A stretch of 64,000 nucleotides of DNA from Promethearchaeota archaeon (GTDB lineage Archaea > Asgardarchaeota > Lokiarchaeia > Sigyniarchaeales > SOKP01), in contig JBHLLU010000018.1 in NCBI GenBank assembly GCA_048938895.1, forward strand, positions 11,282 to 75,281. Direction: 5' to 3'. Each line of letters starts with the position of its first letter. Position 1 is the first letter of the stretch. The position numbers and the translations under genes were made by a program. The notes beneath the pieces are model-generated. The model was not told where the DNA came from and searched no databases. It saw only the letters and a program-made list of their open reading frames with translations. Positions 9,001 to 60,079 of this stretch are shown in pieces.

Positions 9001-9093
9001 TTTAAATAGGTAGTTTCATATATTGTGTATGGTTTCATAAATTTCATGAGATGTGAAACCAAAAGTTAATAAATTAGGTTTGCCTAATTTATT
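9001..9093. promoter_or_regulatory. Divergent promoter with TATA box and putative operator inverted repeats
   Basis: TTTAAATA at 9001 after an A-rich BRE; IR GGTTTCA(9031)...TGAAACC(9060); perfect 11-bp IR AATAAATTAGG-tttg-CCTAATTTATT (9068-9093); lies between the regulators and the ABC operon. Confidence 0.55.
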
Positions 9094-9169
9094 GTGAATA
9101 AAATTAAATTTAACAAAAAAAAATATATAATTCTGAATAAATATTGGTGTAAAAAAACTGTCCAAAGAA

Positions 9170-10117
9170 ATGGTAATTCAAACAAAGAATTTAACGAAAT
9201 ATTATGGAAAAAGTAGAGGAATAGAGAATTTAAACTTAGAAATCTTTAAAGGGGAAATCTTCGGATTACTTGGACCCAATGGTGCTGGAAAAACTACAAC
9301 TATTAGAGTTTTACTAGATTTTCTTAGGAAGACTTCCGGAGGAGCAAAAATCTTTAATCTCGATGTTCATCTCGATTCTGTAGCAATTAGACAAAGAACT
9401 GCTTATTTACCAGGGGAATTGGGATTGTTTCAAGAAAAAACTGCTCGCCGGAATATCGAGTATCTCCTTGGATTATATCAGAATGATATTCCAGACCGAC
9501 GTATAGATGAATTGGCAGTAGTATTTGGATTAGAGCTTGATAGAAAAGTGAAGGAACTAAGTAAGGGCAATAAACAAAAAATAGGGATAATACTTGCACT
9601 TGCTCCAGAAGTAGAACTTTTAGTACTTGATGAACCTACTTCTGGCTTAGATCCTCTTATTACAGCAGAATTTTATAATATCCTTCATAAACAACAAGAA
9701 GAAACAGGTTCTACTGTGTTATTAAGTTCTCATCTTTTAGGTGAAGTTGAAAGAGTAGCTCATAGAGTTGGGATTATCCGTGAAGGTACGATAGTCGAAG
9801 TAGCAACCATTCAACAATTAAAACGTATGGCTATGAAAGAGATCAATGTTGAATTTAAATCTGCAAGTGATTTGGAGAAATTTTCAGAAAAACTTCCAAG
9901 TGAGAAAGTAGAGAAGGTTGTACTAAATGATACTCACGCTTCCTTTTTAGTATCTAGAGAAGAATTATCAAAAGTGCTTAATCTTCTTTCAGAAGTGGAT
10001 ATAATTGATACTGATATTACAAGTCCCGCATTAGAGGATATTTTTTTGAAGTATTATACTGTATCCCCTATAAAGAGTAAAAATAACATTAAGATAAAGG
10101 AGGAGGTGGGATCATAA
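9170..10117 (+). CDS. ABC-2 type transporter ATP-binding protein
   Basis: Walker A GPNGAGKT, signature LSKGNKQK, Walker B LVLDEPTSGLD, SSH switch. Confidence 0.96.
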   Translation: MVIQTKNLTKYYGKSRGIENLNLEIFKGEIFGLLGPNGAGKTTTIRVLLDFLRKTSGGAKIFNLDVHLDSVAIRQRTAYLPGELGLFQEKTARRNIEYLLGLYQNDIPDRRIDELAVVFGLELDRKVKELSKGNKQKIGIILALAPEVELLVLDEPTSGLDPLITAEFYNILHKQQEETGSTVLLSSHLLGEVERVAHRVGIIREGTIVEVATIQQLKRMAMKEINVEFKSASDLEKFSEKLPSEKVEKVVLNDTHASFLVSREELSKVLNLLSEVDIIDTDITSPALEDIFLKYYTVSPIKSKNNIKIKEEVGS

Positions 10118-47615: not shown

Positions 47616-49262
47616 TTATGGAGATTTCAATTTAGCAAAAATTTCTTTATTATTATTTAATTCTTTTAATATCTTTCTTGCTTCTTTGTTTGATAATGAA
47701 AGAGAAATATCACTATTACGGCTCAAAGATCCTGTGAATATTTGTTGATTATCAGCATAAATTACAATATTTTGGCTTGCAAATTCTGGGTTAGCTCTGA
47801 TAATTATTTTTTGTTTTTTTACTTCAATATCCAAATCAATCCTATTATCTTTTTTTGTTCTACTTGATGGAATTCCTCTTCCTCTTGATAGATGCTTAGA
47901 ACTAATTGGATTTACAACAACATCATTACCAAAATTATAAATCTCGAACTCCAGTCTGTCATTTTTGAAATCCCTAACCTCAACTACAGGTCTAGCTAAA
48001 TCTTTATCTCTAAAACCATGAGGAACTTTCACTGTCATTCTTAATATTAAAACAGTTGAAATATCTCCTCCTTCAATGAAAATTATCGTATCGATAATAG
48101 AAGGTAACATTCCTAGTTCTATACGCCCAATAAATCTTTGTATTGCATCAATTGCCGAAGAAGAGTGAACAACTCCAACCATACCAACACCAGAAAGGCG
48201 AAAATCTGCATAAATTTCGAAATCTTTAGTTGTTCTAACTTCATCAAAGATGGTAAAATCAGGCCTTACCAACAAAAGTATATCAGCAGAATTTTCAAGA
48301 TTACCCTCCAATTTAGTATATTGAGTAATTTCAGGTCTAACTTGTAAATCTCTTACACTTTCTAATGTTTTAACAACTTTATTTTGTTTTAAATAATAAT
48401 TTGCCAATGCAGCACAAAAAGTGCTTTTACCAGCTCCAGGAGAACCACACACGAGTATTCCTTCCGCCCTTTCCAACCTTCTTTGTAATTTGGCATCGAT
48501 AGAATAATCTGATAATTTTAAATTTACAAGCGGACGAACCGCTGTTATTTCTACCTCATTAGAAAAGGGAGGACGAGTGATAACGATTCTAAATTCTCGT
48601 AACTGAGCAACAACAGCGCCCATTTTCTCGATTTCAATGAATGAATGTTCATCTTCTCTTACATTTTCAATGATTTCAAGTGCAATATCTTCAATGAGTT
48701 TTGGAGAGATTATTTCACTATTTATTTTTTCTAATTGCCAATTACCAGGAGATCCTCTTTTCGCATAAGCAGGCAAATTTTTCTTTAAATGAACACTCAT
48801 TGTTTTGTCATCAAAATACTCTAGTAATTTGAGTGAAAGAGCTTCTTTTGGTCTATGGAATCCACTTTCTTTTACAAAAAATACTTCTAATCCTTCAAAT
48901 ATTCCTACATCTCCTTGGATTCTATCAGCAGTTATAAGTACAGCATCGTTCTTCAAAGTAGTTTCTCTTATCAATGCATCAAGTTCTCCTCCTGGTGCCA
49001 TTTTAATTTCTTCCCTTGTAGGACGATTTCCCACTATTTTTAACTTGATTTTATTTTCTTTATTAAATTCTCTTAATGCTTTTAAAACATTTAAACCAAG
49101 AAATCCAATTTCTCTATGGATATTTGTCCTATATTCAATTTCAGCAATAACTATGTTTGGTATTAATATCTCAGGTTCATCCCCTAACTCACCATTTTCA
49201 ATCAAATCAAGGATAACTCCGTTAAAAATTACAGATGTATCGCATACAAACTTATCTCCCAT
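47616..49262 (-). CDS. PINc/VapC-family ATPase (PINA, MJ1533-like)
   Basis: PIN motif VCDTSV; GSPGAGKST, ESVRDLQ, FDEVR and GVGMVGVVH motifs. Confidence 0.93.
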   Translation of the reverse strand: MGDKFVCDTSVIFNGVILDLIENGELGDEPEILIPNIVIAEIEYRTNIHREIGFLGLNVLKALREFNKENKIKLKIVGNRPTREEIKMAPGGELDALIRETTLKNDAVLITADRIQGDVGIFEGLEVFFVKESGFHRPKEALSLKLLEYFDDKTMSVHLKKNLPAYAKRGSPGNWQLEKINSEIISPKLIEDIALEIIENVREDEHSFIEIEKMGAVVAQLREFRIVITRPPFSNEVEITAVRPLVNLKLSDYSIDAKLQRRLERAEGILVCGSPGAGKSTFCAALANYYLKQNKVVKTLESVRDLQVRPEITQYTKLEGNLENSADILLLVRPDFTIFDEVRTTKDFEIYADFRLSGVGMVGVVHSSSAIDAIQRFIGRIELGMLPSIIDTIIFIEGGDISTVLILRMTVKVPHGFRDKDLARPVVEVRDFKNDRLEFEIYNFGNDVVVNPISSKHLSRGRGIPSSRTKKDNRIDLDIEVKKQKIIIRANPEFASQNIVIYADNQQIFTGSLSRNSDISLSLSNKEARKILKELNNNKEIFAKLKSP

Positions 49263-49864
49263 TATGAATTACTTTCCTCTTTACTTAATAATTGAAATTT
49301 CTTTACACTATAATAGATTGGTTTACTTAATCTATCAACTGTTGCAACAATTAAATCTTTGCGTGAACTTAATGCAACCCTGGAGATCTTATCAAGATCT
49401 CTTAACTCTATAGGATTACCCTCAAATACAGGAAATATTAAGAATTGAGCACTATCCTTCTCAAAATCAGCACCTCTCTTATAGACTCGAAATTCTATCC
49501 CATTCCCATATCCCATTCGAACAATATAACCTCTTTTCCTTAAATCCATATATATTATATATTTATGCCATAAACGGTTATCGAATTTTGTAAAATAGGT
49601 AAGTAATCCTTCGAAATCATAAAGTTGATTATTTTTATTATTTTCCTCCCACAGATTTAATCTATGTCTTTCTATTAAGAGTAATACCTCAATAGCATCA
49701 AGAATTAGTACATTTTGGTTATCACTATCTTGTTCAATTGTTCCAATATAAGAGCTGTTATAGAATTCTTCAAATCCTCTACTATCAGTAATAAAGACCT
49801 TATCTTCTTTAATCATTCCCTCTAACTGAATCTTTTCAGTTTTCTCATTTGATTCTTCATTCAT
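49262..49864 (-). CDS. endA: tRNA-splicing endonuclease subunit (probably structural beta subunit)
   Basis: YIIYMDLRKRGYIVR..EFRVYKRG and SSRKDLIVA motifs; catalytic Tyr/His appear replaced; TAATG overlap with the PINA gene. Confidence 0.88.
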   Translation of the reverse strand: MNEESNEKTEKIQLEGMIKEDKVFITDSRGFEEFYNSSYIGTIEQDSDNQNVLILDAIEVLLLIERHRLNLWEENNKNNQLYDFEGLLTYFTKFDNRLWHKYIIYMDLRKRGYIVRMGYGNGIEFRVYKRGADFEKDSAQFLIFPVFEGNPIELRDLDKISRVALSSRKDLIVATVDRLSKPIYYSVKKFQLLSKEESNS

Positions 49865-59420: not shown

Positions 59421-59508
59421 CTAAATTAAAATCGTGATTTATTTCTCATAAATTTATTATTTTTAGCTAAATTCTTCAGATTCAAACAAAATTAAAAGGT
59501 GAAGAAGT

Positions 59509-60079
59509 ATAATAATTATACCAAGTCCAGAAACAGGAAAAGAACCTCAAATTCATGAATCCGTGTACATTGCTCCAACAGCAGTTATCATTGGCGATGT
59601 GACTATTGGAGAAAATTCAAATGTTTGGTTTGGAGCAACTCTTAGAGGAGATTGGGGTTCTATTAAAATTGGAAAAAATACAAGTATTCAAGAAAATGTA
59701 ACCATTCATCTAGAAGCCGGTAGTCATGTAATTATAGGAGATGATTGTATTATAGGTCATCATGCAAATTTTTGAAGATTTTACTTCAATCTGCAGAATG
59801 ATTCACGGACCTTGTACAATTGAAAATGGTTGTGTTGTAGGTATAGCATCAAACGTTTTGCATCGTTCCAAACTCGGAGAAGGTTCAGTTTTAGCAGCGG
59901 GAGCAGTGCTTTTAGGTAAAGAGATTCCTCCTAGAAGTCTAGCGGTAGGTATTCCCGCTTCTATAAAAAAGGAAGGAATATACAAAGGAAAACTTGAGGG
60001 TGCTAAGACATCCAAATTATATTCTAAAAAAGGTCAAATGTTTAAACAGTATTTTGAAAAAAACGCTAAAAATAAATAA
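59509..60079 (+). CDS. Gamma-carbonic anhydrase family protein interrupted by a 31-nt insertion (intron, recoding site or pseudogene)
   Basis: Hexapeptide repeats, LRGD, IQENVTIH; the GHHA and MIHG halves are in different frames; no ATG start. Confidence 0.8.
59767..59797 (+). other. Structured 31-nt insertion, candidate BHB/BHL-type mRNA intron
   Basis: Removal restores CAT CAT GCA ATG ATT CAC (HHAMIH); internal hairpin TTGAAG/CTTCAA; TGCA/TGCA central helix. Confidence 0.45.

Follow-up and report, generated by a model that had tools for sequence, protein, structure and literature searches.

A gene for a protein resembling gamma carbonic anhydrase (gamma-CA), carried by a 64,000-nucleotide (nt) stretch of Promethearchaeota DNA (assembly GCA_048938895.1, contig JBHLLU010000018.1, positions 11,282 to 75,281; hereafter the window), is interrupted by 31 nt that most probably constitute a small intron of the archaeal type, removed from the precursor messenger RNA (pre-mRNA) at a relaxed bulge-helix-bulge (BHB) motif. 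We infer the splicing from comparisons within the genus, and these support, as the best explanation, the proposal of an initial annotation of the window that an mRNA intron of the BHB/EndA type resides in an Asgard metabolic gene.

In the genome to which the window belongs (G000; 4.65 Mb, 98.7% complete), the codons GGT CAT CAT GCA (59755-59766) are followed by the insert AATTTTTGAAGATTTTACTTCAATCTGCAGA (59767-59797) and then by ATG ATT CAC GGA (from 59798), exactly as first annotated. Because the flanks of the insert are A-rich, the excisions 59766-96, 59767-97 and 59768-98 are equivalent and give an identical product. The upstream frame (frame 0) ends at TGA 59773-59775, inside the insert; downstream of it, the +1 frame stays open until TAA 60077-60079. 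Removal of the 31 nt yields ...IIGHHAMIHGPCTI..., in which the junction GHHAMIHG is identical to that of the 19 uninterrupted orthologs examined. The proposed layout of the gene is as follows.

59509-59767, forward strand: exon 1, ending ...GGT CAT CAT GCA A; start uncertain; family profile positions 6-83
59768-59798, forward strand: proposed intron of 31 nt in the in-frame BHB register, with cuts at 59767^59768 and 59798^59799; the same excision as 59767-59797
59773-59775, forward strand: in-frame TGA within the insert, kept in 8/8 carriers and part of the 5' strand of the hairpin
59799-60079, forward strand: exon 2, TG ATT CAC GGA ... TAA; family profile positions 83-170

The gene is broken between GHHA and MIHG, i.e., between the two histidines of an HxxxxH motif. 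Its best family is NCBIfam NF050158 (gamma carbonic anhydrase), to which the N-terminal half aligns at profile positions 6-83 and the C-terminal half, from MIHG onwards, at positions 83-170. The profile runs directly across the break, so the family has no counterpart for the 31 nt. The two halves, each scored separately, obtain 79.3 and 53.5 bits and so stay below the curated cut-off of 250 bits, and both contain hexapeptide repeats (Pfam PF00132). The safest description of the host is a predicted gamma-CA/PaaY/CaiE-like hexapeptide-repeat (left-handed beta-helix) protein with a GHxxxxHG motif, and thus a putative enzyme.

Inheritance of the insert and constraint on the gene

Orthologs of the gene were sought in 54 genomes of the genus at an E value of at most 1e-30, and 43 genomes have one. 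The open frame comprises 181-195 residues in 35 of the 43 orthologs, which are uninterrupted, and 90-100 residues in the remaining eight, the carriers of same-site insertions such as the initial annotation had suggested looking for. Among the 22 orthologs in which the junction was read, the 31-nt insert is found at the exact site in three and GHHA/MIHG is unbroken in 19. Seven carriers were recovered by a pattern scan of the 54 genomes and the eighth (G052) through its short open frame. The seven form a single clade with support 99/94 in a tree of 34 rows, in which they stand beside 19 orthologs that lack the intron and 8 outgroup rows; G052 and another 16 orthologs lacking the intron lie outside the tree.

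The insert was also found on DNA contigs from three sequencing runs, when four DNA contig sets were compared at 85% likeness. They are X1, the probable source run; X2, a second sample of the same study (record 12, with 1 difference); and X5, from a different study (record 19, a 952-nt contig with 49 differences and 4 gaps, all of them downstream of 60069). The insert is real and inherited within one clade, and its occurrence in eight independent genomes and in independent contigs contradicts an assembly error, which had been listed among the original alternatives. The DNA contigs of X1 and X2 also include, beside the insert-carrying ones, some with 31-nt skips (59765 to 59797). We rejected these as signs of splicing, since they are DNA contigs matched at 85% likeness, and read them as co-occurring intron-less relatives. 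Such relatives appear to share the same sediments with the carriers in X1 and X2.

Both halves of the gene have been kept under strong purifying selection, each in its own frame, through several speciations. The ratio of nonsynonymous to synonymous rates (dN/dS) is 0.04-0.10 over all 21 pairs of the seven carriers, at proportions of synonymous differences (pS) of 0.24-0.72, and the pooled ratio of the corresponding proportions (pN/pS) is 0.128 for the N-terminal and 0.114 for the C-terminal half. In G052, the ratio is 0.10-0.23. These values bear directly on the idea that the gene is dead or dying, with the insert being what a mobile element or a duplication left behind in a pseudogene or, in a related version, an artefact of assembly. 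The in-frame stop in the insert and the missing canonical start codon in G000 would suit a decaying gene. However, the halves are intact in eight species at pS of about 0.5-0.7 and pN/pS of about 0.12, the 31-mer is unique (no second copy with three or fewer mismatches exists in the G000 genome), and the contigs of X2 and X5 carry the insert as well as those of X1. The pseudogene and the mobile-element footprint named in the initial annotation are contradicted by the pN/pS of 0.11-0.13 on both halves, and we regard a dead gene as very unlikely.

Since its halves are intact and constrained, the cell must get past the insert. The insert itself evolves as a constrained non-coding RNA and not as a peptide. 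Read in the +1 frame, it has a pN/pS of 1.05 as opposed to approximately 0.12 for the gene, with a nonsynonymous rate roughly four times as high as in the gene and a lower ‘synonymous’ rate. In G052, the insert is 30 nt long; it keeps the 6-nt prefix, the stem, and the 9-nt suffix unaltered and has lost one base from the hairpin loop. Given this 30-nt variant, the bypass of the insert must be independent of the reading frame.

This has consequences for translational recoding, in which a +1 frameshift at TTT-TGA (or readthrough or hopping) would add about ten residues to the protein. The +1 frame is indeed open through the insert in the seven carriers with 31 nt, and TTT-TGA or CTT-TGA is present in 3/8 carriers (G000, G004, and G064). 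In the other five, however, TGA is preceded by ATG, ATC, GCT, or TTC, which makes slippery re-pairing impossible. The 30-nt variant would require readthrough of a stop codon, a +1 shift would wreck the intact and constrained gene of G052, and the ten added residues would be placed inside the metal-binding HxxxxH motif. A slippery site in three of eight carriers, an insert of 30 nt in one of them, and a +1-frame pN/pS of 1.05 are not what a programmed +1 frameshift would leave behind. The +1 frameshift at TTT-TGA put forward in the initial annotation is contradicted by the same three facts, and we give recoding hardly any credence. Ribosomal hopping was rejected as a general mechanism, as take-off and landing codons that match and keep the frame are limited to two carriers, those in which ATG precedes TGA. 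In the programmed +1 frameshift of prfB (encoding release factor 2, RF2) and the bypass of phage T4 gene 60, a stop codon follows just after the break and a hairpin lies nearby. The gamma-CA-like gene has both features, and one carrier has CTT-TGA, but it differs from these systems in lacking a conserved slippery site, in having an insert of 30 or 31 nt, and in the absence of coding constraint on the skipped sequence.

Pairing at the proposed exon-intron junctions

If the insert is an intron, its removal may be pictured as follows. The ends of the exons would pair (AUC with GAU, extended by AGGUC with GACCU), and two A-rich 3-nt bulges, AA^A and AA^U, would be presented to a heteromeric splicing endonuclease composed of two EndA paralogs, which would cut after the second base of each (^). 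RtcB would then join the exons as GCA/ATG, and the product, ...IIGHHAMIHGPCTI..., would regain the His-x4-His spacing of the uninterrupted orthologs. Cuts after the second bulge base (59767^68 and 59798^99) do give the in-frame ...GHHAMIHG.... The elements of the proposed structure are listed below, with positions abbreviated to their last two digits where single pairs are named.

59754-59761, forward strand: outer exon-exon helix, 5' strand; AUC 59759-61 pairs with GAU 59800-02, and AGGUC 59754-58 with GACCU 59808-12 across a 5-nt bulge
59762-59765, forward strand: central helix, 5' strand AUGC; pairs with GCAG 59793-59796 through U63:A95, G64:C94 (G:U in one species), and C65:G93
59766-59768, forward strand: 5' bulge AA^A, cut after the second base
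59772-59789, forward strand: inner hairpin UUGAAG / AUUUUA loop / CUUCAA, with arms 59772-77 and 59784-89; pair 72:89 is U:A here and G:C or G:U elsewhere
59793-59796, forward strand: central helix, 3' strand GCAG, inside the intron
59797-59799, forward strand: 3' bulge AA^U, cut after the second base
59800-59812, forward strand: outer exon-exon helix, 3' strand GAU ... GACCU

The helices described in the initial annotation (ATCA/TGAT, TGCA/TGCA with a GAA bulge, and the TTGAAG/CTTCAA hairpin) are all present, and RNAalifold adds the exon-exon helix AGGUC/GACCU (59754-58/59808-12). The inner helix begins at 59769:59792 and continues into the hairpin 59772-77/59784-89. The motif has the at least three of four central pairs, the 3-nt bulges, and the at least one flanking helix of a relaxed BHB, and the outer pairing of AUC with GAU is found in 7/7 aligned carriers (with one U:G). 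In an alignment of 61 nt from seven carriers, the in-frame register that removes 31 nt (register 2) has 82.1% of 112 cells paired, a value reached by 0/500 shuffles. Its covariation score of 0.167, reached by 5/500 shuffles, comes from only 7-8 related sequences in which the central and outer helices hardly vary. Three stem pairs (59769:92, 59770:91, and 59772:89) change on both sides. The first of these, 59769:59792, occurs as A:U, G:U, and U:A and pairs in 5/7 carriers.

A second kind of evidence comes from the exons. The junction codons of the eight carriers read ATA GGT CAT CAT GC(A/T) before the insert and ATG ATT CA(C/T) GGA CCT after it, and G052 has the same flanks as the other carriers. 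The paired third codon positions near the junction are identical in 8/8 carriers, and each of them varies among 19 intron-less orthologs. When only amino-acid-invariant, degenerate columns are counted, 5/8 are codon-invariant within five codons of the junction versus 13/106 elsewhere (Fisher p=0.0024). Of the three near columns that do vary, one holds the bulge base 59766, another belongs to the 5-nt loop, whose bases are unpaired, and the third to a pair that is broken in a single species. Within the insert, the end GCAGA is conserved, with GTAGA in two carriers. The exon flanks bear a footprint of constraint at the RNA level.

Such a footprint is not predicted if the gene is simply split, with an N-terminal half ending at TGA 59773-75 and a C-terminal half starting at ATG 59798 by reinitiation or at an internal start, so that two fragments of about 90 residues form one beta-helix. 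A split gene would account for the in-frame TGA and for the ATG directly after the insert in 8/8 carriers, it is compatible with inserts of 31 and 30 nt alike, and it fits the purifying selection on both halves. It leaves unexplained, however, the nearly fixed length of the insert, the compensatory changes in the hairpin, the GCAGA end, and the frozen synonymous sites of the flanks. The break would fall between the two histidines of HxxxxH, 22 nt with a hairpin between them separate the stop from the ATG, and by eye no GGTG-like ribosome-binding motif precedes ATG 59798, unlike at the 5' end of the gene itself. Moreover, a split gene is unworkable for the four other interruptions in G000 described below, whose 3' exons have no start codon. 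We therefore consider it unlikely, and take the insert to be a probable intron in what follows.

Several observations nevertheless weigh against an intron at this site. The canonical form of the motif (hBHBh', with 4/4 central pairs) is absent, as A62 stands opposite G96 in 7/7 aligned carriers and 3/4 pairs remain, and at least 3/4 central pairs are found at 17% of random junctions per register in the G000 genome. That relaxed motifs are common by chance is also a warning given in a preprint on Asgard tRNA introns, in the portion available to us (bioRxiv 10.64898/2026.10.13.758758). By itself, the BHB motif of the gamma-CA-like gene is weak evidence. The alternative register that removes 29 nt (register 1) has 87.5% of its cells paired and, in the 61-nt RNAs, a stability advantage of 0.2-5.7 kcal/mol, while its excision would create a stop codon. 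The initial annotation was correct in cautioning that the best-paired fold removes 29 nt and makes a stop, and that a 31-nt excision is obtained only if the register moves by one position, with an A.G opposition. Minimum-free-energy folds often favour a plain exon-exon helix. Furthermore, the conserved ATG at the head of the 3' exon may allow the C-terminal half to be translated separately. No RNA run is on record among the 20 sequencing runs listed with this stretch. Finally, a canonical start codon is missing from the gene in G000 and G064. No ATG, GTG, or TTG was found in frame after the stop at 59500-59502 in G000, which has ATA ATA ATT in the start region (window 59500-59517) where G002 and G004 have ATG and G048 and G060 have TTG; the start region of G064 reads GTA ATA ATT. 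The gene could start at ATA or ATT in these two genomes or could have lost its start codon recently, and it may be in recent decay there.

Thermodynamic folding was accordingly rejected as a selector of the in-frame BHB, because the 29-nt register and the plain exon-exon helix are more stable, and comparative evidence was relied on instead. In that comparison, pair 59766:59792 of register 1 is broken in 3/7 carriers without compensation. We infer EndA cleavage, RtcB ligation, and the use of the 31-nt over the 29-nt register. The choice between the 31-nt register, which gives the full protein, and the 29-nt register, which gives a stop codon, could serve as a switch.

Interrupted genes elsewhere in the genome and genus

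Other interruptions were sought with a scan that makes no use of the motif. The 3455 stop-to-stop open reading frames (ORFs) of at least 80 residues of G023, a relative with a complete single-contig genome of 2.27 Mb and without the gamma-CA insert, were compared with G000 by tblastn for adjacent high-scoring segment pairs (HSPs) that abut in the query and lie apart in the genome. There are 33 adjacent-HSP pairs in G000, and among them are the gamma-CA-like gene and four cases of high identity (80-92%), in line with the broken genes with a BHB at the break for which a genome-wide search had been suggested.

RNA polymerase subunit A' (RpoA'): 85 nt between GHFGHI and ELARPV; L157:1090-1174, forward strand (contig C159, ~9090-9174); central helix UAUA/UAUA; bulges GA^U and AA^A
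Flavorubredoxin-like flavodiiron protein: 47 nt between THRGS and SYNAY; L158:1668-1714, reverse strand; central helix GCUC/GAGC; bulges AA^A and AA^G
Ribosomal protein L11: 35 nt between GGPPI and GPAVG; L159:1204-1238, reverse strand (contig C165); central helix GCCU/GGGU; bulges AU^U and AA^A
DnaG primase: 37 nt between AIFGQ and TEGLL; L160:1566-1602, reverse strand (contig C144); central helix GGCC/GGCU; bulges AA^A and AU^A

All four have a 4/4 central helix followed by a 3-nt bulge on both strands, and cuts after the second bulge base give exactly the G023 protein. The L11 insert of G000 also has an outer helix, GGACC/GGUCC, and the in-frame bulges of the gamma-CA insert (AA^A and AA^U) resemble those of the four other inserts. 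A 4/4 central pairing is found at 2.5% of 300,000 random junctions, and the probability of finding it in 4/5 interrupted genes is about 2e-6, or 1.4e-4 when three registers are allowed per junction. The downstream exons begin inside their family profiles, at positions 80 (RpoA'), 35 (flavodiiron protein), 22 (L11), and 25 (DnaG), and a start codon stands at the beginning of the 3' exon in 0/4 of these genes. RpoA' belongs to the core apparatus of transcription and L11 to that of translation. As they are essential and their 3' exons have no start codon, the pseudogene and split-gene readings fail for them.

Not all hits of the scan are of this kind. Those on contigs C115, C33, C73, and C71 were rejected as introns, being adjacent HdrA/MvhD-like genes with start codons of their own, and a hit on C99 was dismissed as noise of low identity and low complexity. 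In two of the HdrA/MvhD-like regions (C115 at ~14700 and C33 at ~51900), an in-frame TGA (CWK*GYG) stands against the cysteine stretch CNWCSYVG of the G023 homolog; these TGA triplets are probable selenocysteine codons, judging from the alignment. Scanning for the BHB alone was also abandoned as unspecific. One L11 locus had dozens of 4/4 open-frame pairs of cut positions (x,y), of which one matched the ortholog protein, and so the junctions were set by homology first. In the reverse scan, 3864 ORFs of G000 of at least 130 residues were compared with G023; among 41 adjacent-HSP pairs, no intron-like interruption was seen in G023 at an identity of at least 55%, which indicates that the intron load differs between lineages.

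Across the genus, the RpoA' gene (rpoA1) was matched in 51/54 genomes, with open frames of 974-1007 residues in 41 and of 81-109 residues in 7. Of the other matched genomes, two show a match lengthened by 30 nt with a TGA in it, and in one the gene is cut by a contig end. The interruptions fall at three sites.

Site A, after GGGCAU: introns of 30 nt (G017, G069, and G045); in G062 and G043, an intron that precedes a second one
Site B, after CAUAUAGA: introns of 85 nt (G000 and G022) or 35 nt (G062 and G043)
Site C, upstream: introns of 30 nt (G049 and G048), with 3/4 central, 6/6 inner, and 5/6 outer pairs

Sites A and B together provide nine instances in seven genomes, all with 4/4 central pairs and the same spliced peptide. 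At site A, a compensatory change links exon and intron, as GGG to GGA in the exon goes with C to U in the intron (GGGC/GCCU versus GGAC/GUCU). Between the two introns of G062 and G043 lies a micro-exon of 5 nt, and the site-B helix exists only once the site-A intron has been removed; from this arrangement, the splicing of the two adjacent introns appears to be sequential.

For L11, 30 of 52 matching genomes were inspected. Twenty of the 30 loci are uninterrupted at sites 1-2, and 10/30 have one or two introns, which measure 36-37 nt at site 1 and 35-36 nt at site 2; a third site, with 28 nt, is present in G048. There are 13 instances in 10 genomes. Scored in the best of the registers with equivalent translation, the central helix has 4/4 pairs in nine of them and 3/4 pairs in the other four. 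Relaxed motifs like that of the gamma-CA-like gene therefore occur in the gene of an essential ribosomal protein. In 14 further genomes, outside the inspected set, L11 has open frames of 139-142 residues, which is a hint of interruptions.

At least three sites in rpoA1, at least three in L11, and at least five such putative introns in G000, as compared with none by the same test in the smaller relative G023, lead us to lean towards a wider reading. In this genus of the Promethearchaeota (Asgard), EndA/RtcB splicing of mRNA would be a regular layer of gene expression, and protein-coding genes, essential ones among them, would have gained and lost short BHB introns time and again.

Known systems and splicing machinery

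A BHB intron in the pre-mRNA of crenarchaeal cbf5 was reportedly described by Watanabe in 2002. According to the available text of a later study, this intron of the Crenarchaeota is cut between the second and third bulge bases, which is the source of the cut rule applied here (Yokobori 2009, PMC2738675). The introns proposed here resemble it, as it is portrayed there, in being short, in lying within the coding sequence with a relaxed BHB at the borders, in their patchy occurrence among relatives, and in the hetero-oligomeric EndA that is expected to act on them (PMC2738675). They differ in their hosts (genes for gamma-CA-like protein, RpoA', L11, DnaG, and a flavodiiron protein), in their Asgard/Promethearchaeota lineage, and in their number, since a genome can have several introns and a gene several sites. 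In contrast to the cbf5 intron, for which the same text gives evidence from complementary DNA and from cleavage in vitro, they are known from sequence comparison alone.

The BHB intron in the 5' untranslated region (UTR) of HVO_1309 in Haloferax volcanii is likewise an mRNA substrate of an archaeal splicing endonuclease, but it lies in a UTR, outside the reading frame, and is described in the accessible part of the source as processed by a homodimeric enzyme with strict BHB motifs (PMC7714728). By the account in that part, cbf5 was up to 2020 the only other reported mRNA case besides this 5'-UTR intron (PMC7714728). The non-canonical tRNA introns of Asgard archaea share with the introns discussed here the lineage, the presumed enzyme, the many gains at varied positions, and the mixture of canonical and relaxed BHB motifs, as far as the main text of the preprint goes (bioRxiv 10.64898/2026.10.13.758758). 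They are found in tRNA genes, however, and the word mRNA occurs 0 times in that main text. A literature search whose coverage largely left out subscription journals and supplements yielded no account of BHB introns in the protein-coding genes of Asgard archaea. The mechanism would be of a known kind, and the apparent novelty lies in the genes that act as hosts, in the lineage, and in the multiplicity of the introns.

In eukaryotes, the coding mRNAs of HAC1 and XBP1 lose a short intron without the spliceosome. A protein endonuclease cuts it out, the exons are ligated (in metazoans by RtcB), and the reading frame changes. That system differs in that IRE1 is used instead of EndA, the cuts are made in paired stem-loops instead of a BHB, and stress regulates the splicing.

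Taken together, the comparisons suggest that a mechanism like that of cbf5 acts in an Asgard genus, with a presence of introns that depends on the lineage. If this is true, split protein-coding genes spliced by a protein enzyme are common in the closest prokaryotic relatives of eukaryotes. Should RNA data confirm it, gene callers and pseudogene calls for Asgard genomes would need correction, as essential genes now look ‘frameshifted’. The gain and loss of introns in coding sequence would then also be open to study in the closest relatives of eukaryotes, and a concrete set of substrates would be at hand for the specificity of Asgard splicing endonucleases.

The host itself possesses candidates for the required enzymes. 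G000 encodes two EndA paralogs with the PF01974 (tRNA_int_endo) domain, in open frames of 209 and 202 residues, and one RtcB. One of the EndA paralogs is encoded in the window (ORF 49262-49864, reverse strand), about 10 kb upstream of the interrupted gene, and the other on contig C83. Asgard archaea are described, in the part of the source available, as having an (alpha-beta)2 EndA with an L1 loop insert that is linked to broad substrate specificity (PMC5829648). The predicted splicing endonuclease and RNA ligase genes supply the host machinery, for which the broad-specificity type is taken from that description (PMC5829648) and not from the L1 loop of the G000 proteins. ARAGORN found 25 tRNA genes in G000, 13 of them flagged for introns, whose BHB layouts are rough, with imprecise boundaries and the best of +-3 shifts taken. 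Many tRNA genes of G000 are probably hidden by non-canonical introns, and the small number found and the large share flagged fit the heavily interrupted Asgard tRNA genes described in the available portion of the preprint (bioRxiv 10.64898/2026.10.13.758758).

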